Shown here one piece after another: positions 27,512 through 62,965 of a DNA stretch of 64,000 nucleotides; position 1 is the stretch's first letter; every line of letters begins with the position of its first letter. The DNA lies in the NCBI GenBank assembly GCA_951406725.2, contig OX597827.1, positions 40,176,001 through 40,240,000 of the forward strand, in the 5' to 3' direction. The position numbers and the translations under genes are program-made. This DNA comes from Octopus vulgaris (lineage: Eukaryota). The notes beneath the pieces were generated by a model that was not told where the DNA came from, did no database searches, and saw nothing but the letters and a program-made list of their open reading frames with translations.

Positions 27512-28114
27512 GTACACTTGAAGACTTTGTTCAACATTAATATCCAAACTTGTGTACCAGTTTTACTTCTGTATCTGTTACATACACATACAAATGGCAA
27601 AGTCCCTAAAGTAATATTTAAGGAAGCCTAAATAGATAAATGGAGGGAAACCCCCTTCTAGTAGTGAGGTCTTAGCTGGGGAGCCCACTAAACCACTACC
27701 CTATTTCTATTGTCTAATCAATAAGCTGTGTCAAGCCACTGCAGAACAGCAGCTAACTTGCATAGTTGGGGACATCATGGATCTGTTATATGCCCAGTAT
27801 GTCAGGTAGACCCACAAAACACACACTGTTCCCAACCTTTCTAATATCCAGGCCAGATCTAAAACCTGGATTTTTTTAGGCGCTGCATCAAAAAAAGTAA
27901 AACACAAGTCAAAGATGCTTGAGGGCCACATGGTTGGGGAGTAAGCTTCTCCACCACACAGCTCTGCTTGCACCTATGATAATAATTATATAATTGTATT
28001 AGTTATTACTTATTTAGTTCTTTAGGAGATTTTTCAGTGAATTTGACAACTACTAGTTTTTTTAATATTTTTTGTTATTTGTTTAATGCTCCTTTGTTTT
28101 GGTTTTTTGTATAG

Positions 28115-38434: not shown

Positions 38435-39016
38435 TTAATGCCTGTATGTATGTATATATATATATAATGTACACGCATACATATTGATATGCACATATGT
38501 ATACACATACATATTGATATGCACATATGTATATATATATATATACACACACACACATATATACATAGATATATAAGATATATATACATACATATGCATA
38601 GATATATATAAGATATATATACATACATATACATAGATATATATATATGATATATATACATACATATACATAGATATATATAAGATATATATACATACAT
38701 AGATATATATAAGATATATATACATACATAGATATATATAAGATATATATACATACATAGATATATATAAGATATATATACATACATAGATATATATAAG
38801 ATATATATACATACATATACATAGATATATATAAGATATATATACATACATATACATAGATATATATAAGATATATATACATACATATACATAGATATAT
38901 ATAAGATATATATACATACATATACATAGATATATATAAGATATATATACATTACATATATATAGACATACGTACATATACATTACATATATATATACAT
39001 ACATACATACATATAT

Positions 39017-39047
<31 letters not shown>

Positions 39048-39532
39048 CATACGTATACATACATACATATATACATACGTATCCATATATACATACGTAT
39101 CCATACATATATATATACATACGTATCCATACATATATATAACTATACATATCCATACATATATATATCTATACATATCCATACATATATATATCTATAC
39201 ATATCCATACATATATATATCTATACATATCCATACATATATATATCTATACATATCCATACATATATATATCTATACATATCCACACATATATATAATA
39301 CAAAATGGGACAAGAACGCTAAACATCCGGACAGCTAGGTGATATACATACATATATATTTATACATATACACATATACATATATACATACTTATACACA
39401 TATATACATACATATACATACATATAAACATACATATACATACATATAAACATACATATACATGCACATATACATATATATACATACACATAGATACATA
39501 CATATATATATACATGAGAGAGGTTGAGCTTG

Positions 39533-39570
<38 letters not shown>
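38435..39570. repeat. About 1.1 kb compound (TA/CA) micro/minisatellite
   Basis: 30- and 36-nt units agatatatataagatatatatacatacat(atacat), then 26-nt atccatacatatatatatctctatac units; lies in the putative 3' UTR of TMED exon B. Confidence 0.97.
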
Positions 39571-39573
<3 letters not shown>

Positions 39574-39614
39574 GTAATTATATATGTATTAGGGTAAGGC
39601 CCTAAGTGCAGCTA

Positions 39615-39848
39615 TCATGACTGTATCGTGTTAGCTGGACGTTTGTCTGTGAAGAAGCTATGCAGAACTATGATCTGGCCAATTCCAACAACAATCACTG
39701 CCACTGTCTCGCATATAGACCAAAAAAATACTCTCTCATTCAGGAACTCAGCAAAAGCTCGCCCACTGGACTCCCGCAGCTTGAAGTGAGTCTGATAGTC
39801 AGCAATGGTGTTCAGTTGTGCATGTGTATTCACTGAAGTCTGCTCCAT
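39615..39848 (-). CDS. p24-gamma (TMED7/TMED3-like) terminal exon B (distal): coiled-coil, TM and tail FFTDKRPANTIQS
   Basis: Intact ORF paralogous to exon A (37 of the first 70 aa identical, no gaps); acceptor tttttttcttctctatcttcag immediately before the same M codon. Confidence 0.92.
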   Translation of the reverse strand: MEQTSVNTHAQLNTIADYQTHFKLRESSGRAFAEFLNERVFFWSICETVAVIVVGIGQIIVLHSFFTDKRPANTIQS

Positions 39849-40018
39849 CTGAAGATAGAGAAGAAAAAAATACGAAAATTATATTTTAGGTGGAATTCAT
39901 AACAAGTCCTCAATAAAACAAGTGTTAATGACATTGTTTTGAAAGTGTTTAGAAGACACTTAAAATCAGATTTAAAAATATATATACAAAACTGAGTGTA
40001 AATGTCACAATGTGTGTT

Positions 40019-40051
<33 letters not shown>

Positions 40052-43000
40052 TACTAATCATTTGACATTAGTAGTAAATTTACATTAGCTTCAGAATAAA
40101 GTGTTGGTTGAGTACAAAGTGTAATGTGACAAAGGAACAGGAAATTATGCAATGAATTTCATCAGTTTACAACTATTCTCTGCTACAGGATGCAGTGCAC
40201 TCACAAATGAGTTCTTTGGGAAAGCATTTACTAGCATTTCATTTTAGAAGCTCTGAGGAAGCTAGAAGGTAGTGCACATGTATTCAGAGATGCATCTTAT
40301 AGCAGAAACAGCTTTAGGCTAATGAAGTTCATTGCCTAAATTCTTGTTGTTTTGTCATTTAATTTCATATACAATTAGCTGAAAATGACAAAGACCTGAG
40401 AGTGACGTTTACCACTTATCAAACCAGAGCTCCCTTATTGCATGCCACTTACCAAACTGTGGCTTCCTCAATGTCTCATGGCAGTACTATAACCTTTAAT
40501 AAGCATCATGCACAAAACTCACAACTCCTTCCTAACTTTCTGCCAAGTAAAAAGATTAACACACATACTCAGTATACTAAGTTCTGTTTCTGCAGTTCTA
40601 CCACTCAATATAAGAACATTCTTAAATCAAAAATGGAGACCAGAAATCCAGAGTTATATTTTACAGATTCAATGCTTTAGTGAAGAAAATCTGTTAGTTA
40701 ACATGCAGTTATATCATGTCACTAGCTATTCGGCCTACAAGAAATAGTAACCAATGTTAATTTCCTTTTCTTTAAGATGGTAGGACATGATTTTGAAGGA
40801 GATTTGACTGTTATTGCTAATAGGCCTAGTGACTGCATAGAGACTCCATCCCAATGATAACACTTTAAAACACTGTCTTGTTATCTTAAAAATACTTAGT
40901 TGAACAGATTTTTTTTGTTAGTGTACAAAGTTTATAAATGCATGGCAAAAAGTCAATCAAATTTAGCAGAGAATTTAATTCAAATTTCTCCAGAATGCAA
41001 CCCAAAATCCCAATCACATGATCACCATTTTAAATTTTGTAGAGGGAAATTTTACTGCTTCATTGATCTTGCATATCATAGTTCAGAATTTAAAGTTAAT
41101 AAGTTTACTAGAGACTTAGTCACTATATGCAGCAAGTCAAGCAACTACATAACAACTGAAAAGAAACTAATGTTACACTTGGACAAGTCCACCTTGCATG
41201 CTTCTCCTTTGCTATAGTCATTCATACCAGCAAGCTAACAAGGGAGATTATGTGGTTACTTGACATGCTAGAAATAACGGCCAAATTTCTTCCAATCAAA
41301 CCAACCATTTCAAAAAAAGTAGTCACTAACCAATATAGTCCTAGATATACAAAAAAGATTGGCTGATCATAGCTGGAACACCTTTGGTCATAGGTCTGCT
41401 CAACCAGGGCTGACTTGGGGTTAAACATTAATAGCAGTTATTCAAGACTGGACAACTGAAGGAATGCAATACACTGACTCATAAACTGCATTCTACACAA
41501 CAAAATGACTGCATGTTGTATATAATATGGATGCCCTCAACCAGATACAAGTACCATAGGCTATTCCTAGTTATTTGAACAAGTACCTAGGTACTGTAAA
41601 CCTGCTTGAGCAAGGCTAACCTGCATTTCATAGCAGCAACTAGAGAAACTCCTTCACTGATTCATGTGATCTTCCATTTAGTCCCTTTTGATACCAAACT
41701 ACCTGAGACTGTCTTTGGTTCTATGATGCAATCTTCCTATTTTAAAGCAATTTCAGTTAAAACCTCCCATGAAAATTTCATGTTGATTTTATGTTCCAAA
41801 CACCAGCTTAATAACAACTAAGTTATTTTACTAAATACTCCATTATTTTCAAAATCAATTGAAACAAATGCAGTGCATTTCAACAAAAATATAGTAACAA
41901 GTGGGTTACACATACTAAAGAGTTTGCTGGTGGAGAAGATTTGGTGGTAACATTGAGCAGGTTGATTTCACAGAAGCTCTCTTGCTGGCTTATGTAAGAT
42001 CACCTATTTTAAAGCCAGTATTGTGTTTGTTAGGGGAAAATTTGGCTGAGACACTGAGCAAGTCAAACTACAACATAGCTCCCTTGTCTGGTTTTTCTTT
42101 TATTCTTTTACTTATTTAGACTGTGGCCATGCTGGGGCACCACCTTGAAGAATTTTAATTGAACAAATTAATGCCAGTACTAATTTCGTTAAGCCTGGTA
42201 GTTATTCTATTAGTCACTAGGCTTAACAAAATAATTTTATTAACCCTTTTGATACCCACCCACTTGAAGTTGTCTTCAATCTTATAATACAAAATTGTCT
42301 GTATTAAAATCATTTCCATTTAAAATAAAATCTCCCATTGTTATATAAAGTTATGTTCTAAACACCACTTTAATAATGAAAATATTTTATCATACCAAAG
42401 CCTTTCAAATTCTTGATTATATTCAGAATTAATTGAAACAAATAAGCACAGTAATTTAGTAAAAAATAAAGTCATGAAAAAACTTCAAAGAATTTCTGAA
42501 GTGGTATTTTGTTGGCATTAGAAAGGGCATCTAGCCATAGAAACCAAGCCAAAACAGACTGGAGCCTGGTGCAACTCTCCAACTAGCCTGTTCCAGTGAA
42601 ACTGTCTGACCCATGCCAGCATGGAAAATGGATGCCAAATGATGATGCATTTTAATAAATATTTTGTATCTGTTTAATTAAATAAATACAATCTTTTAGA
42701 CAAATTTTATCATTTACCTTCATTCGAAAATAAATAAATACCACTGAAAATAAGATAATCAAGCAAATAGGATAAGCAGATTTTTTTTTTTTTTTTTTTT
42801 TTTGTTAGAAAGCAAGCTGAAACAATTAGAATATATTAAAGGCAGAAAATAAGAGTCATGCTTGAATTTGTTGCTCAATAATCAATTTTTCTTTCTGATA
42901 CTAATACATAGTTCATCCACAGCAGAGGAATAAAAAACAAAAAATGATGCTAAAGCCAATCTCTGTAAAATTTTGAACTCTTACAGAAAAGTATGATATT

Positions 43001-43057
43001 AAATGCTGTAATCTATTTAATCTAATATTTTACTGGTTCAGTCATGTACACCTTTAA

Positions 43058-43274
43058 CCCTTTTGATACCAATCAGCTGAAACTGCCCATGGCTCTGTAG
43101 TACAAACATCTTGTTTTCATAAGTTTTGAATAAAAATCTTCCACCAAACCTTAGTTGCAATTTATGTTCCTAACACCAGCTTAATGATAACTATGTTATT
43201 TTACTAAATTCTTTGTTATATTTTAAATTAATTGAAACACAGAGCATCTCAAAATAAATATGGTAACAAAAGGG
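43058..43274. mobile_element. piggyBac-type MITE; decayed siblings at about 41680-41908 and 42243-42470
   Basis: TTAA|CCCTTTTGATACCA ... TGGTAACAAAAGGG|TTAA; shared internal ttatgttcc.aacaccagcttaat. Confidence 0.85.
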
Positions 43275-43489
43275 TTAAGTAACATTAACAATTATGAATT
43301 ATGTTAATTTCTCACATTTGATACAAGGCCATAAATTTCTAGAGAAAGACATAGCTAACTGAATCAAATTTAATACATACATGTCAACTGCAGAAGATGA
43401 ACAAGAGACAAAAATGTTAAAAAGGGTGCATTGCATTTAGTCTGATAGTCTACTGCTTCTGCCATCTACAGTCAAATAGGAATAATATA

Positions 43490-44340
43490 ATAATAATCCT
43501 TTCTACTGGATGTGAAAAGCCTGAAATTTTTTTGTGGGAAGAGGGCTAGTCAGTTACATCAACACCCGGGCTCAACTGGTATTTCATGGAGCCCAAAAGA
43601 ATAATAGGCAATGTCAACTACGGCTGAACTTGAACTCAGAATGTAAAGATGGATGAAATGCCCCTAAGCGTTTTGTCTAGCATGCTAACAATTCTGCCAA
43701 ATTCACTGCCTTAATAATAATAACAGTAATAATTTTTCTGATTTAGGCACATAACCAATAAATGAGCAGAGGGAATTAGCTAATGCAATTGAGCAGAGAG
43801 CTTGACTAGTACTTTATATTGTTGATCTGAAAAGATGAAAGCCAAAGTTGACTTTGGCAGGATTTTAACTCAGAATGTTAAGTGTTGGACCAAATGCATC
43901 AAAGCAGTTATTTCTAAGCTCTAACACTTCTGCCAGCTCCCTGACATTATAATAATAATAATTTCAAAGTAGGTCCCAGTCCAGCAATTTTGAGAGAGGG
44001 TTTAGTCGAGTAAACTGACCCCAGTACTTAACTGGTGCCTTTATTTTATCAGCCTGAAAGGATGAAAGGCAAAGCTGACCTCAGTGAGATATGAACTCAG
44101 AATGTAAAGAACCAGAACAAATACCACAAAACATTTTTTTCTGACATCATAATGAATCTTTAATAATTTTTTCTATCATAGGTACAAAACCAGGGAAGAG
44201 AATTAGTCAAAATTCATCAACCCTACTAATTAGAAAAAGGACTTTATATTTCAACAGGTTAAGGATGAAAGATTCAACCTTGGTGGGAGTTGAACTTGAA
44301 ATGTAAAGAACAGGAACAAATGCCACAAGGCATTTATCCA
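43490..44340 (-). mobile_element. Tandem array of 4 SINE A copies
   Basis: Units separated by (TAA)n at about 43490, 43715, 43950 and 44160. Confidence 0.8.
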
Positions 44341-47300
44341 ATAATTTACTGATCTAAGCAAAAATAAAATGATTAGGATATTTTTTTAACAAGACAAAGA
44401 AAATATAAGGAGCTTACAGTTGGTGGAATTTTAAATAGTATATTATTTGGTGGTTATACTCTAACCTTTATACTAAAATGGATGCAGCAGAAAATAAGAA
44501 AATAGGATAAAAATGGAGTATCATCTTGAAAAGAAAGTTGAAACTTTGAGAATATATTTAACATAAAAGCCTAAATTTTTCATGAGCAACACAAATTAAG
44601 AGAAATGCTTTGAATTTAAATTTCACTGGTAAACATTACCCTTCATTCCTAAGAGATGACGGTTAAAAATTAATTTAGGCAGAATTTGAACTCAGAACAA
44701 ATCAGAATGGAACTGAATATCACAACATATTTAATCAGGCATTTTGTAGTGTGATTGACTCTATACCACCAATAATAGCTGGTGCTTATTTCATTGAGCT
44801 CAGAATGATAAAACGTTGATCCTGATGGCTTTGATTTCAGAATGTAAAGAGACATATCAAAATGTCAGCTGTGCCAAAACAATCATCCTATACTGGCTAA
44901 TAATGATGATGATGATGATATATTCAAATAAAGCCTCAAATATGTTGACAATAGGCATGATCAATTAAACTGAATTTCAGCAGAAGAGCAGAATTCTTAG
45001 TCTTATGAAACTAAAGTAAGTATATCTATATATGTAACCGAAACAACTGCTAGCCTTTCTCATCACCTGTCACATACTACCAAAGTAATTCATACCTCAC
45101 ACTGCCTCTGACACTAATTACCACCTTTCTAAAAGAATGAAATAGAAAGTTTAAAAGAATGGAAGGGAAAGAGTTGTTTCGAACAAATGTTTATATCATC
45201 TAGTCTGCCTTGATATTAAAAATATTCCCTCCTCCATGTAAGATGCTGTCAATGTATATCAGCTGGTCTTGTTGTTTAATAAAGGAGCTACCACTTGGGT
45301 CACTCAACTTGCTGGAAACAGTAGCCAATTATCCCTCAAATTTACAACCTACCATCTTAAATGAAGGATATTATTATTAAACAATGCAGTTCCTGATATT
45401 AAAAAAAATCCTGCAATTCTAACAGTTGAGCATACAGCACCCTACAATAGTAACAAAGAAGATAAGTATTACTGCAATGATGACTGGACAGTTATTTATT
45501 ACCAGTTATTGCAAGAAGAGTTCATCAATTGGGGAGAGGGAAAATGATAGAAGTGTTAAAATTTTCATAAACATCTTACCAACAGCCCTTGTCCAGTATG
45601 ACCCGAGTTCTATACTATACATTGTTAGTAGAAAGAGTTACAAATTCCCAAAAAGCCTCATATGAGAATAAAGAAATTTTAAAAAGACATTTATTGTTAC
45701 TACAATTTAGCCCCTGGCCACATGGTAAGGCTTGGTCCAGCAGACCTATGATTAAAGGCACTCAAGTCATGACTTTTACTCAGACATGCTGTATCTAGAA
45801 CTACATTATCCAACATGGTCTTCCTTTATCCAAATAACAGGCTGTTGTTTGAGGAAGATTTGACTGCTGTTTCTGGCAGGACAAGTAGCTGCATAAACAC
45901 TCCTTTGTTGGCTCTTAAAAATTACTCTGAGTTATGTGTATGTATGTGTGGAGAGATCAGAGATTTATTCTTCATGTTTCAGTATTCCCTGCAAAGTGTA
46001 ACATGGCTATTTTCCAAAAATCAATACAATTAACCACCTGGTGATAGAAGCATTTTATCAAAGCACATAGAAACCTAAAGCAATTTGGTTATCACATTTT
46101 ATTTTTTATTCTTTGATTTTTCTATTTTCCATTTTATTGTTTTCTTCTTTAGTTCCAGATCAGTTCCAAAAGAGAAGATAGGTTTTTTTTTTTTTTTTTT
46201 AAGAAAGCGAATCCAACTATGACCAACCCCTCATTTTCTTTAAGATATGACACAATATGTCCTTTTCTGTTTGAAAATATGATTTGCAGAATGAAGATTT
46301 GGTTGTTATGTCTAGTAGAGGTTCCATCTCAATTTTGCTTTCATATGTGAGATCCATTATTAGTTGTTTTTTGGCCCTTTTATTTATTTGAAAAAGGAAG
46401 AAAGTATTATCTTATCAGTCAAGAAAACCAAACCATTGTGACAAGTCCCCTTCCCATGGATGCAACCTGTTGTTGAACTAATGACCAAGTTGTCAATAGA
46501 CCAGCAGAAAAAAAAAAAAAATCAAGTCTATTGAATACGAACAAACTGTAAATGACGTCACTTTAAAATCATTAAATTTAATAATCCATTTCATATCATT
46601 TCTTCAAAAATATCAACCGACTTTTTAATCATTGTATTTTCTGACATACAAATCAAATTTTCCAGACCAAATTAGACAGGTCAACTTATAAGATGACTTT
46701 AGAAGACCAAAAATACTATGTGAAATGCAGCAGGATTTGGAAAGATAGTTATGACAATGTTTACACTATATACACCAAATTATATGCCAGAAAATACAGA
46801 AATGAATTTCAAGTATTCATTACTATTTTGTGGAAAAACAAAATGGAATTGTAACCATAGAGACGATGATCATCTCTACAACAGTTTATAATAAACCAGT
46901 ACACTTTAGACAGGCCATTTTTAATTTGTTAACACTATAACTAAACCCTATCCCCAAGTATCCTACAGATGGATACTAACAGTTTCCTAAAGACAGCCAA
47001 AAATAAATGTGTCAAATAGCTGTAGTGTCAGTGCAAATTAGTTGAAACAGGCTTTGGGGCAAACCAAAAAATACCATATAAGAGGTAAGCAGAGAACCTG
47101 TACATTTATATAAGAATCTGTGGTACAAGATTCTGTTTAGTTTGCATTAGCGACAATAATTGTAGAAAAACAGGAATGGTTTATTAATAATGTTAGACAA
47201 ACAGGTCAAAGATTGTCAGTTTATATTCTAGCAATGGCACTGAGTGTGTCCATGATCATGACATTTAGCTTTCAAGTAAAATTTACCTTGCTGAAACAAC

Positions 47301-49488
47301 AAAATAGGCACAACTTGCCACCATAATCAGTAGGTACAAAGTAAACTTGGCAGCTAACTGTACATGACAAGATCAACTTCCCATGTAGGTAGAGCTTGAA
47401 GAAGAGCAAGTCTTCCCATGCTGATTGACTCTATAAGCACTATAGGAAAACAAGGTATGCAATTGTGCCCACAAAAATCCATAAATCCTGTGTTTAATTT
47501 AAGTTTCTTCAGAATTATGTGAATAATGATAAACCTCCAGCTGGGCTGGCTCCCTAACACTACTGAAATCCTAAGTTGAAGATCAACCATTGCAAGGGGC
47601 ATAACCAGATAACAAAAGATTTTGATCCATGCACTACTAATTTTGCCAACCACCATATAATGGCATTTTTTTTTTCCAATCCACTATTGTCATGTATGAT
47701 AGTACGTCAAAACTAATTACAGATTTCAATGACATTAAGTAACTGAGACATTTTACTTTTACATAAAAAGGAATGTTAATTTATTGTAAGCTTTTGTTTC
47801 AAATCAAATCTGAGACTAAAACTGCAAGCTAATGAAAAGAAGAAAATATAATCCCTACAGCTTTCAGAAGTGAACTGTAGCTCTCCACTAGTTAATGACA
47901 ATATAGAGCTTAAGTGGAGCGCATGAAGTTAGTAACCTGATTTAAAACAGCAATAACTGTTTTGTTACTATACTGATTTTGAAATAGACTACTTTTGTTT
48001 TAATTAATTAGTTTTGGAAATAATAAATTCATTAGAATAACTTTAATTACTAGGTGATTGGAATATAGATTAACGTGAATATAAAGTAAATTTGGAATAT
48101 ATATTTACAGGTTTTAATTTAAATCCATTTAAAAAGAATTTGTATCACAGAAAGAAAGGATTAAATTCAGTTCTCCACAGAAAAAAAAATCCCAAAGTAC
48201 ATGCAAATGTCAAAATTTTGAAAAATAGCCAAAGAATATTTTCTCTTGACAGTATATCCAGTTTTTCAAGATTTTTATTAACTTACCCATTGTCTTTGGA
48301 ATTAGACTTGGAGAACATTCTTACAAGAGGACAAAGTCACAAATTTGCTGAAGGAGCTATACTTAAATATGATAGTTACAGTTAGTATATGATGGTACTT
48401 ATTCTATAAATTCCCAGAGAGATGTAAGTCAAAGTCAACCTGGAAAGATTTAAACTGATAATGTGCAAGGTTGACATTAGATTCCGAAAAATTATTCAGT
48501 CCATCACAACCACTGCTGTAATTGTTTCTGTATACATTCAGATCAACATATTAAAACAACTACATTTCTAAGTTAGTTTGAAGTAATTTTATTCTATGCA
48601 TCTTCAATTTTGCTATTTAATCACTTTTAACTATTAAAACAATGCTAAAAATGATTACTTTAGACTGTGCTCAAAGTAAGTTTTTGCAATAGATGTAAAA
48701 GATTTTAAGCAATCCATACATATTACTGGTATATGATGCTACAAAGAGCATCCAACCAAAGAAACCATGCCAAAGCAAGCATTGGAGCTCAACACAATGC
48801 TTTGACTTGCTGGATCCTACCAAACCATCCAAACCATGCCAGATGTTAAAATGAAATTAATGATGGCAAGACTGGAATTACTATGGAAGTTATTTTGTCC
48901 AATATGCAACAATCTGTGAACATATTACCTTAACCAGTAATATAATAATAATTGTTCCTAACAGGCACTAAGCAAGAAATTTTGAGTACTTGACATGTAC
49001 TTCATGTTACTGACCTCAGCCCAATACTTGATTGGTACTGTAGTTTATCAACCCTGGAGGAATAAAAGCAAAGTTGAATGTGGCAGGATTTGAGCTCAAG
49101 ACAGACAGTAATATAATTCTAATTTTGAAAGAAGGCCAATAGTTTTAGGGGAATGGAGGTTAAACAATTACATCAACCCCAGTACTTGACTGGTACTTTG
49201 TTTCTAAACAGACGAAAAGCAAAGTTGACCTTAGCACAATCTGAACTCAAAATGTAAAGAGCTGGAAGAAATGCTACAAACCATTTTGTCTCATGCACTA
49301 ACAATTCTGCAATAAATAATAACAAGTACAGTTTCTTGCAAAGACCCAAGGTCAGTATTAAAGGGAAACTGTCAACTCAGCCCTGTTACTTGTATTTAAT
49401 TATAACAGGAAAAATAGTATCCTCAACTTAATAAAACTTTAAAATGGCACTACAGCTATCAGTTTGTTTCATACTTATTTGTAATATA

Positions 49489-49721
49489 CAGTGTTAGCCA
49501 AAAGTCACCCGACAGTAAATCAAAATTCCATAAATATTATCTGTAATTCTGCATTGACTCAAACGGAAAAAAATGTATTGCTCAAGGACTTCAGTTTGAA
49601 CAATTTTCATGATGTTTCATATTTAGATGCTTTTATTAAATTCATTCAGTTGTTAAACATAAATAAATCTTGAGAATTAAAGGATTTTGATTTACTGTCA
49701 GGTGACTTTTGGCCAACCCTG
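49489..49721. mobile_element. Tc1/mariner-type MITE
   Basis: TA|CAGTGTTAGCCAAAAGTCACCCGACAGTAAATCAAAAT ... ATTTTGATTTACTGTCAGGTGACTTTTGGCCAACCCTG|TA. Confidence 0.88.
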
Positions 49722-50801
49722 TATGACTTCATATAGGTAATACAATATTGAAAATTTATGGCATATATGCTCTGGGTGTTACCAGTACAATTTGGAATAT
49801 GTGGAAGAAAACTGAAGCCAATTCATAGATATGGATCACATAGAGCTTATATATTGTATTATATATATAAACACTTGGAGGTTGGGGGGGGGGGCTTACA
49901 GTATGATGTCCAGTTAATGATAAAAGTGTGTACAATGAATTTAGTATTGAACAGAAACTACATGCCAGCTATCACAAAATTTCAGATCTAATGGCAAGAC
50001 TGATTAACTTTAGTAGCCTTAATTTTAAGAATATTTTCACTGTCTGGTATATTAAGATGTTTTAAAAATCAAAGAAAACTCTTACATAAAAGTGGGATGG
50101 AAAGTTTTGATTTATATATAAACACTTTAAAGCAAGCAGTTGTGTCAAACAACTAGAGGTGGTCTCAGGCAGGTTAAAAACAATTTCATAACTTTATCAT
50201 ATATTTTAATTGTATGAATTAGAAGAATGATTTTCATAAAATAACCAAAACTGGTGGTTGAGGGAGGAAGAAACAACTTATGGGTTGCTGCAGTAGGAAG
50301 CATTGCACCACAGACATCAGGTTATCCTCAGACAAGAGACTTGGACTGAATACTTTCAACAAAGTTTTGCTTAAGGCTCCCAAGGCTTAAGAAAATATGT
50401 TGTGGGTTGTGAGATAAATCAGACAACCATGCAATGCTACATAATACCAAAACAACCTCATCAACTGTGGCATGAAATTAATATTACCCAGAATAATGGG
50501 TTATATACTATTAAAAAATAACAGGCTTTTTTTAATGTTAAGCAAAACAAAAAAAAAAAACACCTGTCTCCTTCGAAATACCTTCACCCATAACACCCGT
50601 TTAAGCAATCCCGACTACCCTAGGCCGAGAGGGCCAGTTTCACTTTGGAAACCACTTTTATAGCACTGTTCTCAGAGACCACATGCCTAATTTATTACAG
50701 TTCAAATTTTACCTCAATGAATAAGTAAAATAAAAATTCATATTTTGATGATAAAAAAAAAAAAAAAACACTAACACTTTCGCCAAAAGAGAAACATTTC
50801 A

Positions 50802-50807
50802 TTTATT
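50802..50807 (-). terminator. Candidate poly(A) signal for TMED exon A (implies a ~3.5 kb 3' UTR)
   Basis: AATAAA on the - strand followed by a GU/U-rich tract (gtgttagtgttttttttt); AT-rich context makes chance hits likely. Confidence 0.4.
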
Positions 50808-51033
50808 GATTTCTGGACAAAAACAATCAAAATATTTTTTAAATCTTGAAATATTACAAAAAAAAAAAAAAATATTCTTAGATTATAAAAAAAATGTTTA
50901 CAAAATTTACAATGAATTCAAAGAAAATCTTAATATATCAACAATTCACTAGTCTGCTTATTTTGAAAAAAAAAAAAAATTTACAAATTATTTCCAATTA
51001 AAATAATCAAACCAGATGGTAATTTCAGTACAA

Positions 51034-51064
<31 letters not shown>

Positions 51065-54000
51065 GTTCTATATAAAATATCAAATTGATAAAAGCATTTT
51101 TTTATAAACCAAAAGAGAATCATGTTAGAAAAAAATTTTAACTAAAGCCATATCAAATACAAAATGAAAAATATTGATATGAAATAAAATAAAAAAATAT
51201 TCAATCTTTAAAGTTTCATTGTTGAATTTTGATTTGAGTTTGAATTACTCTAGCTCCAACTTTCCATAATACTTGGATGTTTTCATAAATGAAAATGTGG
51301 AACATACAAAGGTTATGGACATTGACATTCTCAGACTAACTCCAAAATGTTTTCAGTTTCAAATATAAAATATGCAAAAAAAAAAAAAAATGAACTGAAA
51401 CTCATCTTGTAATAAAACAGTTTACCCAGAGTAATTCAACTAAGGTTGGTAGAGTCAGTCTGAAAATGGAACTCACAAACTCTTTCACTGCTTTGTAACT
51501 CAGAGATCATAACACCCTAATTTAGTGGTAGATTTGTTCATTAAAAATAATTAAAAATTATGAATCAAAGACACACACACATACAAAGTAATTGTTCAGT
51601 AAACTATCTCAACCTCAGTTTACATCTAGTGCTTACAGATTGAGTGTATGGAGAATTAAATTCAATGTAGACAGATAAAACTATATAATGAAAGGCATAG
51701 CTTGGCTCTACCAATTTACAATAATTATGACAATTATAAAACTTATGAGAATGAAGATGATAAAGATTTCTTAATCACAAAGCTAATTTTTGTTACAGAG
51801 TTATTGATTATAAATGCATGAACCCCACTGTAACATTGGTGTAATTTTATTGGTCATCGTGGAAATAAAAGGGAAAAACAAACAAGACAAAACTTGGATT
51901 TAATAACAAGCAGAATAACACTTAGAAATACTACACATATAATACTGTATATACTACCCAATAATTTCATATAAATAAAAACAAGACCAACTTTCACAAT
52001 GGTGAAGGGATGTAGACAGTTGAATCAACTTTATTACTACTACAACTCTATTAAACTGAAAGAAAGAGAGAGAGAGAGATGAAAAATGAAGTAAACTACA
52101 GAGAAATTTAAATTCTGAAAATACAGAAATGAAACCAAATACACGAAGACAATGAATGTTGATTCGCCACTCTCACCTAATAATCATAAAACGCTGGAAC
52201 ATTTCAAACTATTATATTTCACTACTTCTCTCCAAACTATTATATTACATGACTGAATAAATGCAGTCAGTTTTAATACTGAAATAATAAAAATGATTTG
52301 TAACACAGGCATAAGGCCACAAATATTTGGAAAGTATTGTCAATCCAACTGACTCAAATATCTATTTTATCAAGTCCAAAAAGTTGAAAAGCTGAATCAA
52401 CCTCAGCAGGGTTTGAACTCAGAATGTAAAGTGATATAATTATACACTGTAAAGCATTCTATCCAGTGTTTTACTAATTCTGACACTCAACCATCAGCAC
52501 ACAGCCATTTATATACAGTGAGAGGAATATTTGATTTAAATTACCCCAGAACTTGATTCATATTATGAAATATTCATTGATTCTGAAAGTATGAAACACA
52601 CAGTCAACTAATGGGATTTGAACTCTTTATATATGAGAATATGATGGGTTTTATACTGGTACAAGGATAAACTTATAGAGGAGGAGCATAGTTGACTCAA
52701 TTGAATCAACTATAAAATACTGTTTTTTATATTATTGACTTTAACAAAATAAACAATAAAATTGCTTTGACAAAATCTGAATTCAAAGAGTAAAAGGAGG
52801 TAGCTAAATACAGTGAGGCATTTTGCCCGAAACTCTACCTTTTCTTTTCACTCTTTCCAATTGTTGGTCTTTTGTGATAAAAATAATTTCTGATGTAGTC
52901 AGAAGGCCAGAAATTTTTTTTATGGACTCCAGAAGGATGAAAGGCAAAGTTGACTTTAGCAGGATTTCAAATCAGAGTGTAAAAGACCATAACTAACTGC
53001 TGCAAGGTATTTTGTTTGATGTTCTGAAGAATTCTGCCAATTCACCAAATGATAATAAAAAATACTGGTTTTCATGCAACATACCCAAAGACATAAAATA
53101 CAGACAAACATACAACCAAATTCAATTATTTTCACTGGTTCAAATTTCAAAATGATAAAACTATCATAGCCATCTTAATTTGAATTATGAGTGAAAAATT
53201 TTTTAAAATCAACTGAAAAAAAAATACTTAAAAACTGAAATCAAAATTTCAACTCAAATCAAAATTCACTTTTTTAATCAATTTAGTTTTTATGTTAAAA
53301 TGAATTTCAATTTTAACATTTAAAAATATTTTTAATTCTATTTATTCTTCCCTTTGATTGGCTCATTTATTTAAACATTTTAGTATCATCCATTTGAAAT
53401 TTTAAACTGAAAACAAACAAAAAAACTTTTTAAGACCCTAGGTATCAGTCTTGTTGAAAATCATCTTTTCTTTTTCTTATTCTACATAACCAATAATAAA
53501 CAAATGCCAGTAGAGGTAAAAAGATAAAGATAAGGAATTGGATGGCTGGATAGATTATCATTCAGTTTCACACTCACTTTAGATGAGCAGGCAACTTCTA
53601 CAGTTCATTTTGCTATGAGGTAGGGGAAAAGCTGGGTAAGTTCATGGCTCTTCAAGGAAATGTATAAAATTGATAGGAGGATGAGCAGGAAGGGATTATA
53701 TTCCTATTTCATGTACTTCACAGAAATAGCAAAAAAAAAAAAAAATAATACTGAACCTTTGAATACTGTCTTCATTAAAAGATTAACTTAAAGGAGTTTA
53801 TTATCAAGTAGGGCATAGTAAGACAAAGGGAAAGATGGTGTTGCTGTATGGATAAAGGTTGTTCGTTTTCATGGGAGAGGTTATCAATTAGAATTCTAGA
53901 CAATTTTAAATTGCAGCAGTAATTGTAGTTTGCAAATATAAGCAAAAGAAATTATTTGCAGCTACTGGTATAATCTATAAGCCAGTGTCTTTCTGTTTAT

Positions 54001-54303
54001 CTGACAATGAAATATATGGTTGGCTTCATCTATAATTAAAGTTTAAATCTTCTCACAAAAGAAAAAAAAAAAAATCAATTGCAATGTCTGTTTTCTGATT
54101 GGATAAAATGTCCAAATTTCTGGTTTTCATTAATTTTTTTTTTTTAATAATAAACCCCATCCCTACTTTATTATATTTGTTGTTTATATATATATTTGAT
54201 GGGTTTTTTTCTCTTCTTTCCAGTTAAAAAAGGTAAGGTTGTGAAATAAACATGATCCGCATCTCACAACCTCTTTGTAGTTTTTCTTGCTTTCTGCCCT
54301 GCC

Positions 54304-54528
54304 TTACGTCTTGACCTCTCTTTTATCAGTGAAGAAACTCTTCATGATGAGCACCTGCCCAACTGTGATGATTAAGATGACTAAAGACTGACCCACGGAC
54401 CAGTACAGCACACGCTCATTGAGGTCTTCAGCAAATGATCTAGTCTGGCTCTCTCTAAGTCGGAAATGAGTTTGATAGTCCACTATCTGATTTAAATGTT
54501 CATGGTTAACCACAGCTGAGCTCTCCAT
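54304..54528 (-). CDS. p24-gamma (TMED7/TMED3-like) terminal exon A (proximal): coiled-coil, TM and tail [10 protein letters not shown]
   Basis: Motifs [21 protein letters not shown] and GQV...SFFTDKR are diagnostic of TMED7/3; preceded on the - strand by acceptor tgtctgttctcttgtag; the initial M is internal (phase 0). Confidence 0.93.
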
Positions 54529-54907
54529 CTACAAGAGAACAGACAAACACCATTTTCCAGTTGACCGCACACAAACAAAAGTTAAATAAAAATAAGCAAT
54601 AATTGAAATAAACAAAATCAAAATAAATATAACAAAATGTAGCAAGGAATATTATTGTTGTTGCTGTGTTGCTCATGACTAACATAAGCTAATTATTCTG
54701 TTGTGCACAAATAAAAGCCATGGCTACAGTGGATTTGTACAGAGATTATGAGCCAACCAGCCAACCATTTCTTTTTAAGAGCTAATGTTTAGTTATGACT
54801 ATTTTTGGTATTGATGTTCCACTACCTTAAAGCTAATTTAACAACTTTGAATTAGGACATGGATGCTTTTATTTAAATTTTTACACAGATGATATGAAAA
54901 TAATATT

Positions 54908-55433
54908 CAGTGCTACTTTGGTGTGTGATCTACAATTTAAAGAGAAATTACTTTCGGTTACTTTTTAGTTTGCTTTTCAATTTCTAAATTTTTTATAAAT
55001 TCTTTTGTACATACTTAGCATTGTTAATGTGTTTTTTTCAAAATTGTTACTATTTTAATAATAATAAAACCATGTTTCACTTATGTCTTAGTAAATAATA
55101 AAAAACCAAGAATAAACAATATGCTAATTAAAATAAGCACGTAGATCACAAAAGTTTGAGAGCTGCCCGTTTTGCAACGTAAAGTTGGCAAAATTTCACC
55201 ACTTTTCTCTTCTCTTCAAGCTTCCTGCATTTCTCCACCACAACGACGACATGGTACAACATTTTCTGCATCATTTAAAAGGCCATTTTTTCATGAAGAT
55301 ACAACTGCCTTTATCTCATTGCTTATTGCATTGTAAAAATCTTTAGGTAACATCTGAAGGGTTTTTAGAAATTGAAAAGTAACCTAAAGTAATATGCCTT
55401 TAAATTGTAGATCACACACCAAAATAGCCCCTG
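54908..55433 (-). mobile_element. Internally deleted DNA transposon, Merlin/IS1595-like
   Basis: About 70-bp imperfect TIRs (tttggtgtgtgatctacaatttaaag...ttactt); relic ORF from 55353 on the - strand MLPKDFYNAISNE...GLLNDAENVVPCRRCGGEM...PTLRCK. Confidence 0.7.
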
Positions 55434-58400
55434 ATATTCTATGACTAAAACTAAACTATTTGTTTCTCATCACTGTGTGAAAATTATTATTAACACCATG
55501 TAGCTTCTTATTAGTACTATTAGTATTGAAGGTGGCAAGCTGGCAGAATTGTTGCCATACCAGACAAAATGCTTAGCAGCATTTTATCTGTCTGTTTTGA
55601 GTTCAAATTCCACTGAGGGCAACATTGCTTTTCATCCTTTCAGTGTTGGTAAAATAAGTACCAGTCAAGCGCTGAGGTCAATGTAATTGACCAGCCCCAA
55701 CCTAGCCAAAAGTTCAGGCACTGTGACTTTAATAGAAAGGATTATTATTATTATTATTATCATTACTATTATTGTGGCCTAGTGGTTAGGGTGTTAAACT
55801 CAAAATTGCAATATCGTGATTTCAATTCCTGGACTGGCCAAGGTATTGTGTTCTTGAGCAATCCTCTTCATTTCACATAGCTCTGCATCTAATATATGAC
55901 ACATTGTGCATCTGTACAGGCAATGTCAGTTTGATGGAGGGAGTGAGCTGATAATGTCCAGCACAAACATTTGATTACTATAAACAAATCTGCACAGCTA
56001 GTTCAGCAAGAAATTGTGGAACTCTCATCTACTACAGATAATGATTATTATTAACAGTAGTAGTTCCTCCACATTTAATTCAATAACTACATTCTACTTA
56101 GGTCAGCTTCAACCTAAGGTAGAATAAAACAATGTTATATACTGGCAAGATCAAGTCAATTGCATATAAAACCTTCCCCAATTAAATATCTATTTAAGAT
56201 GATTATTATTATTATTATTATTATTATGGTGGATTTCGTGCAAATGCCAGAAAATATTATCATTAATACAATAGCTAAGTGAGTAAGATATTGAACTATT
56301 GGCTCACAGCAATGTTTTGTTATGTCTCTGGCAACAACTTGCTTAATTACTTGTCTCAGTATTCCTCTTTTCTAATCATTGTTTTCTTTTAAATAATTAC
56401 CATTATCTTTATATTTATTCTACATCTATTTCATGCTTGAATAGGTTGGATAGTTCAACAAATGCACACATTTTCATGGATAATGTTAATACAACCAAGG
56501 AGATAGAGCAAAGAAAGTGCTTAAATATGCATATCCAAATGTCTATGTGAAAACTAAAATGCCAGTGTGCATGCTGTTCCATATTAATAGATGCATTTGT
56601 CAATGTGCATATGCCAGTGTGCACAAATATGTAACTACACCTATTCATATATATACAGGAATAAAAGCCATAGATTTTATACAGGAAAGATATGAGATTG
56701 AATAACAATGATGCATTCAAGGACATTAAAGCACAGAGGTCTCAATGAGAAATTAAAACAGGTTTGTATGAATCATTATTGCTACAAGCAAAAACAAATT
56801 TGCTATACAGGCAAGACGCCACAAATATATTGAGTACAAGGAAATGCAATTGTCTGATCAATCTAGTTTCAGTTGCACTAAGTGATGCATGATTAAATAA
56901 AGAATAAAACATTGAAAAACAATCTTAAACACTCCATATGAAACCTGCACTGCTTTCATGAACAGAGACCTTGAAAACATTCAATGGTAGGGTGAGATAT
57001 GACAATCTTATATTTTTTGACAGCACAAAGTCAATCACTGCAAGCAGCAATCTTTTTCTCCATGTACCATGTCTAAGATAACAATAATCATGAACCTCCA
57101 TGCCCTCTAGTACCCCAACACAACATAATTGGGATGGTTTTCCTGAAGCCAACTGGTAAAGCCATTGAGTATCTTCTCCTCTATCTGCTTCTTCTTTTCA
57201 GTTTCTCAGTTGTCACCAAATGCTCAAAGCTCCTTATGTCAGTGAGAAGCTTTCCAATGGTTTTTGCTCATCTAAGGAGCTCATTGTTTATTACTGTCAG
57301 CATAAGATAGCTTCAGCTTTCTTCTAAGGAACCACATCTTTGTAACACAATTTTGTGGTTGTTGATGTTCCAATACACAATAACCTCAAAGTTACTATAA
57401 ATGCTAAACATGAAAATATGATCTTTCTTGGCAAGATCATCTTTCACATAAGATCTGCTTCCCAGATCTTTCTGCTCAGGGTCAGCAACAAAGTTTAAGT
57501 AGGCCTACATCTAAGACAATTATGCTGCTACACACACAAACATATTTAACTGTATGCAACTGCATTCAACAGATTGCCTTATTCTGTTTAATTCCATTAT
57601 TGCTGCAATAAGGGCTTCTGCTTCTCAAAACTAACTAGATGCATACCTCCTCCACTTAAATCTCTTATCTATTGCCTCTTGTCATCCATACTGTGTTATA
57701 TATATATATATATATATATCCAAACCCCACACAAATTACTTCCCAATCCTTCAATACCAAAATTTCAAATGCTCAAAATCCCTTTCTGTACATATTTTTC
57801 TTGCAGATATTAAAATACAGATGTTTAAACTGAGCATCATTCATATCAGTCTCACCAACCAATTTCAGTTTGAAAATCATGGAAGCCTAAACCAAACTAC
57901 AATATTGACAGCAACATAGGTGTACGTGAATAGCAGTGATGGAGTGAATGCACACAAATGGCTTGTATATTGGCCAGGCCAGCCTCAGTTATGGATACAT
58001 GATGAAATATGATTTTGTCAAACAACTATGAAATAAAGGAGAACATTGTGGGATAAACAAACAACACAAAAATAGATATATTTTGTTGAAATTAATAATA
58101 ATTGACATGAGCAGAGAGGGTTTATTAATTTAAATGCCACTGAAGCAAGAATGGATAACTTTCCCAATAGCTAACCATATTATGGGATTACTTTTGTTAG
58201 AGCAAGTTAACTAAGGCCTTTTGATTTATGTGCATTGCTCAGGTTGTGGTCAAAAATCACAACAGATTAATTGTACAGGTAAAATTTACTTACTGTTGAG
58301 AGTCAGCAATGTAATTGTACAGTAAGCGAGTGCTGAACATATCTAATTCAATAAAATATCAGCTATTTGAGGAATCAGCAGTTTGTATCCAAAGAGTAAC

Positions 58401-58849
58401 AGTGAGGTGTCCACGATCTAAGTATTTAACTCTATAATAGCACAGTACATCTAGCTGTACATAGGTGCTAACATTTTAAAATAAGTTAACTCATTCTGCT
58501 AGTTAGGATATCTATTATGACCTTGTTGAGCCATGATGGAAATACTATCACAGTCACACTATAAGTGTGACTATTTCATGACCGCTACTATCCACAGGAT
58601 TGATTAAAACTATTATTCATCAATTTGATGATTGTCTTCAGAATTTTCCCCATTTTTAAAAACTTTTTCAATATATTTAGGTAATTTAAAAAGAGGATGA
58701 TAATAATTTAATAGTGGTAAGAGCATCAGACAAGATATATATATATATATATATTTCTAGTTTGCTGGTTTGTGGTTCAAGTCCTGCTGAAGTCCATTTC
58801 AGCTTCTCATCTTTTCAACATAGATAAAACAAGCCTGTAACTCTAGTAT

Positions 58850-59720
58850 GATATAAGAGAAGGGCTTATTCCAACCAATAATCTAATAAAAGTGAATCTC
58901 AGAAAACATAGGAATACGTTTTCAGCCACCAACTCTAGGTGTGCAAGAGGGCTCATAATGTAGCTTATTGTCATTACAAGTATTAATGGTAACATGCAAC
59001 TCAATACAATCTGTTGCATAGTCAAGTCACTGGTGACTAAACCAATAGCCCCATCAAGCTTGCTTGGTGAAAAAAGTAATTTGGAGATTTTGTGATGTCC
59101 ATGACATTTTCATCAGTATTATTTAATATAACTGAATTATTACCAATCATGAATTAAAACCCACTCTCAGACATGACACTTGTCAACTTTTTTATGTCCA
59201 AGTCAGTGAAAGGTCAGGTAATATCAATGACTTCAACAAACCATCTCAGAAAAAAAAAAAAACCTACCACTAGGGAGACAATGGAATTCAGGAGAATCAA
59301 TGGCCAACCAATTTTGTTTATGACGCTTGAAATGACTAAATTTTCAGTTGATTGCACAGAAGAAATCCAACAAGTTTCAACTGGTAGAAAGGCAATATCC
59401 AGCAGCATTACCTGGTCTTCTCACTGCATTGCTGATAAAACCCCAATCATCTTGGATGCTATGCTATTGGTCCAGAAAGTAATTAGGGACGAGAGATTGG
59501 GGCTGATCATCCAGTGCAGACCTTATTCACCATCATCTAAGTACAGTGTAAGTCAAGACTCAAGCGATTTCAAACCACACACACAGACAGCAAATCTTTC
59601 ACTGTAAGAAGCAGGGTATTGCAAGAATCTGCCACAATGAAGTACAGCCACTTCTATAGTTTCATTGCTTAGAAGGTGTAATTATAGGCAGAAGCAATCA
59701 CAAATCTGATTACCTGTGTA
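58850..59720 (-). mobile_element. Heavily decayed LINE fragment, probably endonuclease region
   Basis: Higher-complexity pseudo-coding stretch sharing acacttgtcaa.tttttatgtc with about 61050; no intact motifs. Confidence 0.35.
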
Positions 59721-62489
59721 GATGCATCCCGCATTGTTGTGGTGTATAGTAGTAAAGTTTTGGTCATTTTCAGAAACAAAGAACAAACATCAGCCAATAA
59801 TGCAGATGTGTTAAGAAGCCAAGACAGAACAGAACTCATTTGCTAAAGCTTAGAAGTGGTAGTAATGTTACAGCTGCTATAGATGTTAGTGTTAAAATTT
59901 TGATGTTATTGTTATTTGAATTACTTTTGGATTAATAATTGTTTCTTAGATTAGAGAAATGATTGCTTACACTGTTCTTATAACATTTATCAATATAGAA
60001 GCACAGTCTTATATTGATTCATAACTGAAACTGTTCATAGACCAAGTGTATATGGAGAAAACATATCATGGTTTTCCATTAATGAATGGTGTATGTAATT
60101 TGGAAAAACTATTTTTGTTTGTTCTTGTTCCTCACTGTGTATATGTACATATATATATTTATATATATATTTCAAAATCTAATGGAATAGTTTTATCTGA
60201 GATAATGTTCCACTTTTAATTACTACTGTTCTCGACCATTGCATGGTTAACGCACATCATTAATTTTTCACTTTGGATTCACTGACATGTGTTTTATTCT
60301 TTAACTTAACCATCACAATTTAATTTCTTTCAGACTATTAATGTAATCTTTTATATGTGCATCAGTGTTTGATCAGTTTCACCTTTGAGTGACAATTGTC
60401 TTCACATGTCCTATATTTACTAATAAACATAGGCTGAGTAGAATGTAGAATTAATATTTCTACTTGGCAGATATCAATGTTGTGAATCTCAAAACAGTAG
60501 GTAAATGATTCAGGGTTTTAGAACTCAACATTTATAAATAAAGGTTCTGAACTAGAACTTCAAATATATATACATATATCTAAATATAGGCATGAAAATG
60601 TAGTGAAAGCAACAATCAAGATAAGAACACTAGTCCGACCAATGTAAATAGTGTACATGAATAATTGAAGACCAAATTAATCACAACGTTGTCTAACAAA
60701 CAAATACACAAAAGAGATGATTAATAAATCCGAAAAGTGTAAGTCGTCATAGCAATAACTCAAATTAAAAGTACAATTACCTTGCTTCAAAACACACACA
60801 TATACAAAGCAGCAGCAATAGAAGAGTGTGTAGAAAGTACATCAATCAGTTAGAAATTAGTAATTCCCATCTCCCATCCAGGGAGGTACATGTGAAACAG
60901 TAAGTTTCAAACTTTATAGCAATTTATTACTTTGGCTCAGTTTTATAGATGATTGGAAATGGGATTTTGTGACATTCGTAGCATTTTCAGCTGTATCAAC
61001 AATAATTGAACTACAGTCACTCATGAATCAAAGCCCGCTCAGATTTGACACTTGTCAATGTTTTTATGTCAAAGTTAGCAAAAGGAGGACAGTACCTATA
61101 ACATTTACAGGCTCTCCCAGAATGCTGTGGTTGATAAGGCTGATATCAAACTTGAACACCCACAGGAAAACTGTAGGTGGGAGTAAATGCTTGCAAAGAG
61201 CAGAGTAACCTAAAAACCTCAAAAGACCAAGGAAATACTACTTTACAATAATTACATACAAGCTTCCACCCTTTTGTTGTAAACAAATATATCTTCTATC
61301 TCTTACTTGTTTCAGTCATTGGGCAGTAGCTATGATGGAATTTTTACATAGGAAATTCTAATGTATTTTGAGGTCTAAACTAAATTAAGATTCCCTTAAT
61401 GTTGATATATATATATATACATATTAATTAACTCCCTTGTTTCTTGAGAATGTAGCATGACAAGATTATAAATTTTTAAAAATGCTTTATAACACACTGT
61501 TTGAGCTTTACATTCAAGTAGAAGAACCATGATGAAAATCAGCAAATCATGGTGAAAATCAGACTTGAAGCAAGGCAGATTCTTTTATTCCTTTATTCTT
61601 TCTCTGGTTTCAGTCATTGGACTGCATCTAAGTTAGTATATATTAGCCCAGAATTTCTTTTACTGGTCTCTATTTGTCAAACTGCTGCTTTATGGAACCT
61701 ACAGAAACAACGCCAGTTTATAGACCAGAATAAAGAATCTTAGTCACACATGATAGACAACTACACAGTTTCTGTTTATCAATTTCCACCTACAAGGTAC
61801 GAGTCAACCCTAAATTTTAGAAAACACTTGCATAAAATGATGTACAGTTGGGTCACCCCTGGAGCCAAGTGGTTGCTAAGTCAACTTCTTAATCATACAT
61901 GTGCCTATAGTATGAAGCAATAAATATAGCATAAAATGTGGCTTCAATAAGTAAAACTCTACTGAAATATAGATTCTGAGTTAGATGAGAATTGGATGAA
62001 AGATTGACAGATTTATTGCCAAAGGCTAAATGTATATTGCCAATCAATTTACACATCAGATTTACACAACACTTGTGTGGACAGACTAACACTTCTTGTA
62101 CAAAGATACAACAATGGCAACCCAAAGGAGCTGCATATAGTCACTTAACTTGCAAACAATAATCTATTTAATAAACTTCACTACACACGTGCACATACAC
62201 CATCCAGAAGAGGAAATTTCAGATTGGAAGCAAAATAAGAATCAAAAAACCTTTAAATAAATCTAAGATTAAAGTATTAGCATAAAAGAAAACAGCCATC
62301 ACCATCCAGGAAGTGGCCATGCTCGATCTGCAGAAAAGAAGGGGGTAGGAATTCCAAATGATGTACTCTAAACTATGGATGCACAAGAAGTGTAGTGGGA
62401 TCACAAGCAGTATAAGCAGGCTGACAGGAAAGATAGACTTCATACGTAACAAATATAATTAACAGTAAGAGTATACATGAAATAAATTC

Positions 62490-62965
62490 CTTCAAATGCT
62501 CAAAAGGTTCCCTATAATTAGGTGATCTAATTAGCAGTGGAGAAGAGTATTCTGAAAGCACAGCTACCAGGGTAATAACAGTATGAAAAAAAATTTGAGG
62601 AACTATTGACACTGCTAACAAAGGAATTCTCTCTCTGAGTGAAAGACAGATTGCATGATGCTTTTGTATGACATGCAATGTTGTATAGTAGCAAGACATG
62701 GGTATTAGATGCAGAAGATATGCAAAGATTGGAAAGAAATAAGATGAACATGCTCTGTTGGATGGGTCATATTAGTGTGCATAGACAGAGCACAAATGAG
62801 CTGAGAGTAAAAAAGATACAAGAGGAATCATAAGTAGCATGCAAAAGAGATGACTGAGTTGGTATAGACATGTGAGGCACCTTAAAAACGACTGTTGAGT
62901 AAAGCCTGACAATCCAAGTAGAAGGAACCTACAGGAGAGGAAAACCAAGGAAGACACAGGAAGAA
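62490..62965 (+). mobile_element. Decayed RTE LINE 3' region
   Basis: Relics of KGRLYDA...ETW, LERNKM.ML.W and SMQ..LSWYRHV...VEG..RRGKPRKT. Confidence 0.7.

Follow-up and report, generated by a model that had tools for sequence, protein, structure and literature searches.

Two homologous last exons of a p24-gamma cargo receptor gene in Octopus vulgaris and their counterparts in other molluscs

Two homologous last exons within the window

The sequence under study, here called the window, is a stretch of 64,000 nucleotides of Octopus vulgaris DNA (contig OX597827.1; G000:C14:40176001-40240000) that holds, on its minus strand, two homologous exons, each of which encodes the end of a p24-gamma protein. 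In other organisms the p24 proteins are described, in passages of a review (PMC7045115), as hetero-oligomers that cycle between endoplasmic reticulum and Golgi and bind COPI and COPII, and the structure of a p24 hetero-oligomer has already been solved (21GL). The proximal exon (exon A; 54304..54528, minus strand) consists of 74 codons followed by TAA and completes a protein of 217 amino acids (aa); the distal one (exon B; 39615..39848, minus strand; FFTDKRPANTIQS) consists of 77 codons followed by TGA and completes a protein of 220 aa. Each comprises a coiled coil, a transmembrane helix and a tail. Both exons open with the residues M-E immediately 3' of an AG acceptor, have their first 6 nt in common and keep an open frame up to their own stop. 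The 3' splice site of exon A (54529..54578, minus strand) is GT-rich, has the shorter pyrimidine tract and ends in TTGTAG; that of exon B (39849..39898, minus strand) has a long pyrimidine tract and ends in CTTCAG.

A preliminary description of the window had proposed two intact paralogous exons on the minus strand, 14.5 kb apart, with the same M-E start, a gapless alignment and separate stops, and all of this was confirmed: the stop of exon A and the start of exon B are 14,455 nt apart, and the copies align without gaps at 37/70 identical aa and 120/210 identical nt (37, 56 and 27 of 70 at the first, second and third codon positions). Synonymous sites are saturated (pS 0.84) at a pN of 0.31. 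Both exons score above the cut-off of the PF01105 family (58.5 bits for A and 54.2 for B; cut-off 25.9). The identity is distributed unevenly: 26/40 residues of the stalk, 4/23 of the helix and 7/7 of the FF-dibasic motif are the same, the tail motif being FFTDKR in both endings. The membrane helices have 19-residue hydropathy values of 2.08 (A) and 2.23 (B).

A single gene with shared upstream exons

We added 100 kb of upstream sequence to the window (164 kb in all) and compared two profiles, one of GOLD (128 rows) and one of the last exon (130 rows), with all 8,929 six-frame segments. The matches were confined to exon 1, the GOLD exon, exon A and exon B, the next-best having E-values of 0.49 and 0.032. 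The coding part of exon 1, with the signal peptide, is 180 nt long and lies about 20 kb beyond the window end (G000:C14:40260383-40260562, minus strand); the GOLD exon (exon 2) is 249 nt long, in phase 0, and lies about 16 kb beyond it (G000:C14:40256143-40256391, minus strand), so that the window contains only a part of intron 2 (54529..64000, minus strand). The donors of exon 1 and of the GOLD exon both read GTGAGT, all junctions are in phase 0, and the donor of the GOLD exon is common to exon A (intron of 25,614 nt) and exon B (intron of 40,294 nt). The translation of exon 1, exon 2 and exon A equals XP_029644670.1 (isoform X2, 217 aa) letter for letter, and that of exon 1, exon 2 and exon B equals XP_029644669.1 (isoform X1, 220 aa) and CAI9732889.1. 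The two XP records are consecutive RefSeq isoforms, X1 and X2, predicted for Octopus sinensis; the products of the gene are thus identical to O. sinensis and O. vulgaris records.

The profile search of the six-frame segments revealed no second GOLD exon or first exon between A and B, and none of the 1-kb bins between them reached a CpG observed/expected ratio of 0.75 (bins at exon 1: 0.96-0.99). The earlier claim that neither a GOLD exon, nor a signal-peptide exon, nor a CpG-rich promoter separates the copies is hereby borne out; a GOLD or first exon at that place, which would have made the copies tandem genes, was sought by profile and not found. A tandem gene duplication was rejected on this ground, and an assembly duplication was rejected because A and B are 57% identical in nucleotides. 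A Rab/Ras-family GTPase gene, represented in the window by one exon (PF00071, E 4e-10; 27384-27537, plus strand), lies on the opposite strand and converges on the p24 gene.

Transcript evidence

Exon A was found in 19 of the 24 sequencing runs listed; these runs carry no RNA label on record and were guessed to be RNA. The contigs of four of them, from four studies (runs X2, X5, X6 and X11), were mapped to 39580-55000. Since the first 6 nt are the same in A and B, a fork between 31-mers behind a common upstream exon is predicted to leave 24 upstream letters on the contig, the last of which is the G of the acceptor, and therefore 23 loose letters. Contigs ending at 54529 with 23 loose letters occur in all four runs, and contigs ending at 39849 with 23 loose letters occur in runs X6 and X11; none was seen for exon B among the contigs listed for runs X2 and X5. 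It is thus very likely that both exons are spliced to one shared upstream exon, the fork signature being strong but indirect. The fork at both acceptors, together with the RefSeq isoforms X1 and X2, agrees with the splicing pattern that had been proposed, and with the absence of a GOLD exon between the copies and the purifying selection discussed below it supports the core of that proposal, namely that one GOLD domain is joined to either of two membrane and tail modules by the choice of the last exon. We have little doubt that this is one gene with two last exons that are both in use.

The contig depths were 246 for B and 29 for A in run X11, and 142 for B and 38 for A in run X6, although contig depth cannot rank the parts of a gene; in runs X2 and X5 they were 66 and 19 for A, with position 39711 of exon B uncovered, and such a hole in the cover proves nothing. 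The differences between runs are no more than a lead on tissue ratios.

The 3' untranslated region of exon A (51140..54303, minus strand) measures about 3 kb as far as the overlapping contigs of the four runs reach, and further downstream the genome has an A-run (51059-51034) and AATAAA at 50807 and 50696. The candidate poly(A) signals put forward in the preliminary description carry no weight, because AATAAA occurs 1.45 times per kb on the minus strand and the contigs run across the hexamers nearest the stop of exon A for about 3 kb. Behind exon B, the end of the untranslated region is masked by an AT-rich microsatellite (38523..39572) that begins about 40 nt past the stop. A blastn comparison of 6.6 kb around A with 6.5 kb around B, in which relics of the duplication in the flanks were looked for, matched the coding exon alone.

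A third, unrelated ending of 25 codons (52956..53033, minus strand) is given by the database model CAI9732890.1; it lies within the untranslated region of exon A, has its acceptor at 53033 and would produce a GOLD domain without membrane helix. No fork at this acceptor was seen among the contigs listed, and contigs of runs X2, X5 and X6 run straight across it; the ending is probably a minor or spurious form. Interspersed repeats in the intron and in the untranslated region of exon A (42100-44700, 48850-49900 and 52000-52960) show a very high contig depth that comes from elsewhere.

Family membership and predicted structure

Judged by its sequence, the octopus gene is a p24-gamma of the TMED3/TMED7 type: among its best 120 homologues the hits named after a paralogue are TMED7, TMED3 or ERP2, and other p24 loci of the octopus match TMED5, TMED9 and TMED10 better. 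Residues 9-29, encoded by exon 1, form a hydrophobic helix at the N-terminus, as expected of a signal peptide. In the predicted models of both forms a GOLD sandwich leads into one long helix (from 134/140 to 210); the best fold matches are the p24 GOLD structures 7RRM, 5AZW and 5GU5. In both models the exon junction (143/144) lies at the start of the long helix, so that the choice of last exon would replace the greater part of the stalk, the entire membrane helix and the tail.

A search of the whole genome for the p24 family yielded at least 15 matches, of which at least three are on the contig of this gene (the GOLD exon, A and B). Further p24 genes (on contigs C22, C15, C11 and C26 of the same assembly) include TMED9-like, TMED5/1-like and TMED10-like members and one that is strongly diverged; a clear TMED2-like locus was absent from this first look at the genome, the counts of which are lower bounds. 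One p24 gene is intronless (G000:C11:49252237-49252767, plus strand; an open frame of 244 codons, with 49% identity to exon A across 68 aa) and is possibly an old retrocopy or a TMED6-like gamma member.

Conservation of the pair among molluscs

Homologues were collected with the 220-aa form as query (best 120 of 1,179 matches, plus cluster look-ups) and with exon B only (20 candidates). We retrieved 12 pairs in which the GOLD part is identical (111-115 positions) and the last exon has 36-47 identities in 73-76 positions, the helix identity averaging 0.54 over the 12. These pairs belong to Octopus, a cuttlefish-like species (labelled so by its likeness to a Sepia cluster), Haliotis, Gigantopelta, Patella, Mytilus, Magallana, Mizuhopecten, Mercenaria, Ruditapes, Dreissena and Sinanodonta, i.e. 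to cephalopods, basal gastropods and bivalves, and a set of 202 rows contains further pairs in more oysters and scallops. In Sinanodonta both forms carry one locus tag. In the oyster records (P0150, P0152, P0165 and P0166) an insert of 4 residues at the junction of GOLD and last exon is present or absent with either ending, which suggests a 12-nt microexon and hence four isoforms. The pair of endings is thus not specific to the octopus.

Selection was judged at the protein level and by one pS/pN comparison of A with B. Exon B is identical to its Argonauta counterpart at 70/77 positions; A and B share 56/70 and 53/70 residues with their counterparts in the cuttlefish-like pair, versus 38/70 and 41/70 with the respective other copy. 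These comparisons indicate that both copies are under purifying selection and have been kept across species. Saturation of pS at a pN of 0.31 and conserved frames in several species also uphold the suggestion, made from the window, of an old duplication maintained by selection.

A homologous pair was not encountered among the annelid, nemertean, brachiopod, arthropod and deuterostome rows retrieved. An amphioxus pair (P0100/P0183) was not counted, as its second ending is non-homologous (12/60). A separate search with the GOLD part only (best 120 of 709 matches) gave no partner form for the chiton Liolophura, nor for Aplysia, Biomphalaria, Lymnaea, Physella, Elysia, Arion, Bradybaena, Littorina and Nucella; where names are given for the partnerless chiton and snail records, they lack an isoform number. 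Pinctada, Solemya, Lottia and Mactra were likewise partnerless among these 120, and the partners to be expected for Mya X2 and Argonauta X1 were missed as well, which makes absence from this set weak evidence. There is thus a hint, at most, that the pair was lost in the higher snails.

Origin of the two copies

Long and short forms were assigned by tail length and compared over the 12 pairs, with 16 outgroup rows as reference. The coiled coil is further from the outgroups in the long form in 12/12 pairs (0.55 vs 0.66), a bias that is absent for the helix (5/12 pairs). A serine at exon position 11 occurs in 9/12 long forms, among them long forms of all three classes, in 0/12 short forms and in 0/16 outgroup rows, and a change from Gly to Cys at exon position 46 is specific to the long forms of cephalopods. 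The conserved tyrosine that precedes QTH (exon position 18) is kept in 9/12 short and 3/12 long forms, with octopus B retaining it; both vertebrate TMED3 rows have a serine there, and the more derived copy has possibly undergone a parallel relaxation. Trees were calculated from 70 columns, with 52 and 54 rows chosen out of 133 and 202. In the tree of 52 rows, 13/15 long forms group with the single chiton form at a support of 93/83 (branch not starred).

The simplest history, which we consider probable, is that the copies derive from a single duplication that preceded the split of cephalopods, gastropods and bivalves, and that the long-tailed copy afterwards may have drifted further in its coiled coil. 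The age of such a duplication would likely be more than 500 million years.

The two endings had been presented as a splicing-based analogue of the vertebrate duplication into TMED3 and TMED7, and as an analogy this stands. The vertebrate proteins TMED7 (p24gamma3) and TMED3 (p24gamma4) are of the same family, have the same domain order and are likewise two versions of one ancestral gamma receptor. In contrast to the mollusc forms, which share their GOLD part exactly, they differ in GOLD too (72-83/110 identical). By identity, A and B do not map onto the vertebrate pair: the values against TMED3 and TMED7 are 0.52 and 0.60 for the short forms and 0.52 and 0.58 for the long forms (the TMED7 averages exclude one aberrant and one truncated record), and neither ending is nearer TMED3 than TMED7. 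The constrained tree that joins the long forms with TMED3 is 35.4 log units worse but not rejected (p-AU 0.09 in the approximately unbiased, AU, test). Vertebrate TMED7 records with unrelated endings (P0190 and P0198) break at the same junction, after ...ALTQ. Such TMED7-type records, from bird, turtle and amphioxus (P0190, P0198 and P0183), leave the GOLD exon for unrelated sequence at a shared intron position, and their endings are probably gene-model variants.

Interpretation and alternative explanations

We propose that the 217-aa form would arise when the proximal exon A is spliced and the transcript polyadenylated behind it, and the 220-aa form when exon A is skipped and transcription continues over another 14.5 kb to exon B; as each exon has its own stop, the products would be mutually exclusive without a special switch. 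According to passages of a preprint (PMC13404660), the tail and the coiled coil of human TMED7 mediate its binding to GRASP55, which TMED5 does not bind, cargo is likely bound through GOLD, and a TMED7 chimera with the coiled coil of TMED5 still binds TMED2, 9 and 10; the consulted passages of the review (PMC7045115) name GOLD as the site of dimerisation and the tail as that of coat binding. From these assignments it follows that an effect of the exon swap on anchoring and sorting is more likely than one on the choice of cargo or the basic assembly. The earlier view of the coiled coil as the determinant of hetero-oligomer assembly is, by the same passages on GOLD dimerisation (PMC7045115) and chimera binding (PMC13404660), not secure. 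By analogy with TMED7, the swap could tune the Golgi anchoring (GRASP55) or the coat binding of the hetero-oligomer and leave cargo recognition unchanged. On these analogies the two forms are probably functionally different proteins, and that GRASP55 or Golgi retention is the specific difference can be put forward only tentatively. The reading as a whole, in which alternative last exons would yield a pair of receptors that have the cargo-binding head in common and differ in stalk, helix and tail, and likely also in place and partners, is in our opinion probable too.

Several observations weigh against parts of this interpretation. The junction was deduced from the number and place of the loose letters and not from the letters themselves, in runs that are presumed to be RNA. 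The FF, the dibasic pair and the Gln of the helix are kept in both endings, so that neither ending has clearly acquired or lost a sorting motif, and the net charge of the tail is +1 in both octopus forms. What the forms do in molluscs is argued purely by analogy, from a human result that compares TMED7 with TMED5, a more distant pair, in a preprint. The 12 pairs are related and not independent. In the tree the long group lacks two of the gastropod long forms and takes in the one chiton form, and the short forms do not form one clade; the identity between long forms of different classes (0.50-0.58) is no higher than that between long and short forms (0.55-0.63). The AU tests reject neither one duplication (p 0.11-0.31; one long clade 0.226), nor three duplications at the level of the classes (0.07), nor one confined to cephalopods (0.30), nor a clade of the long forms with TMED3 (0.09), and a single origin is therefore the simplest history and not a demonstrated one.

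The identical motifs would also suit an explanation in which both exons are used, the proteins are interchangeable and selection maintains two 3' untranslated regions and two poly(A) choices (acting on mRNA amount, stability or tissue), the aa changes being drift. The predicted folds of the two forms are indeed alike, and the untranslated regions, of which that of exon A extends over some 3 kb, are unrelated, the blastn match being limited to the coding exon. Each copy, however, is far nearer its counterpart in another cephalopod than its twin, the asymmetry of coiled coil and tail length has the same direction in 12/12 pairs, and the octopus helices agree at only 4/23 positions, with changes such as the one at position 46 that are specific to the cephalopod long forms. 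We regard interchangeable proteins as unlikely.

The AU values and the cross-class identities would be compatible with a second alternative, which accepts the splicing model and assumes a convergent history with separate duplications of the last exon in cephalopods, basal gastropods and bivalves. Convergent duplications of 3' exons have been reported for tropomyosins (in passages of PMC9741552). The tree with three duplications is, however, the worst of the six compared, 35.8 log units below the free tree; three gains within one phylum would stand beside the lack of any homologous pair among the non-mollusc rows retrieved, and the serine at position 11 is common to the long forms of all three classes. 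We judge a convergent origin to be improbable and prefer a single duplication.

That the second exon is a silent leftover, a remnant of a tandem gene or an assembly duplication is hardly conceivable: the junction letters were not seen directly, which would allow it, but the nucleotide identity of 57% excludes an assembly duplicate, a second GOLD or first exon was not found, both frames are conserved across species, the fork is present at both acceptors, and the single variant listed in exon B (39711, third position of codon 46) is synonymous.

Relation to known systems and significance

Tandem duplicated exon substitutions with homologous C-termini form a known class, of which 236 human events with 77 C-terminal swaps have been described, the terminal regions being rich in single membrane helices and coiled coils (passages of PMC9741552). 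The octopus pair belongs to the tandem-duplicated alternative 3' exons, its two homologous members lying one behind the other in a single gene and in the same phase and frame, and resembles the described events in having two tandem homologous 3' coding exons, one per transcript, that are old and conserved; it differs from them in being molluscan and in swapping the entire membrane-anchoring third of a cargo receptor. The word 'TMED' does not occur in the main text of that article (PMC9741552; supplements left out of the search). A report on duplicated last exons of a p24 gene was not found in the literature searched, which was mostly outside subscription journals. The arrangement thus appears to have been annotated by pipelines and otherwise undescribed, so that the preliminary description's doubt whether it was known can be answered in part: both products were already in RefSeq.

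Two further systems invite comparison. The GOLD domain of the human splice variant TAG (TRAM adaptor with GOLD domain) derives from TMED7 read-through. There, too, splicing gives GOLD another C-terminus, but that ending is an unrelated TIR adaptor and human-only (passages of PMC7904555), whereas in molluscs the alternative ending is a duplicated homologue and the product is still a complete type I membrane receptor. In the distinction between 'entrapment' by TMED7/2/9/10 and 'non-entrapment' by TMED5/TMED1 (passages of PMC13404660), the coiled coil and tail that decide the function are the parts that this exon swaps; that system has been shown for human paralogues with misfolded cargo, and the octopus has a separate TMED5/1-like gene.

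As the class of mechanism is well known and both proteins were already predicted in databases, the surprise of the finding is limited. It extends the set of ancient duplicated last exons to a gene of membrane traffic and provides a possible rare genomic marker within molluscs. On the question of what sets the several p24-gamma subunits of an animal apart, and why they are all kept, a 2026 preprint assigns the Golgi anchoring that is peculiar to TMED7 to its coiled coil and its tail. In the mollusc pairs the GOLD part is identical and coiled coil and tail differ, so that the residues that differ consistently would point at the determinants. More speculatively, and rather against the odds, the pair could be a splice switch as ancient as the shelled molluscs, between a form that is anchored in the Golgi and retains cargo and one that cycles freely and exports it, both with an unchanged cargo-binding head. 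Its setting would depend on the tissue in organs with heavy secretion; cephalopods, bivalves and basal gastropods would have preserved the switch, and caenogastropods and heterobranchs would have lost it. If this were true, the dozen or more natural pairs would constitute a domain-swap series from which the roles of stalk, helix and tail of p24 proteins could be read apart from that of GOLD.

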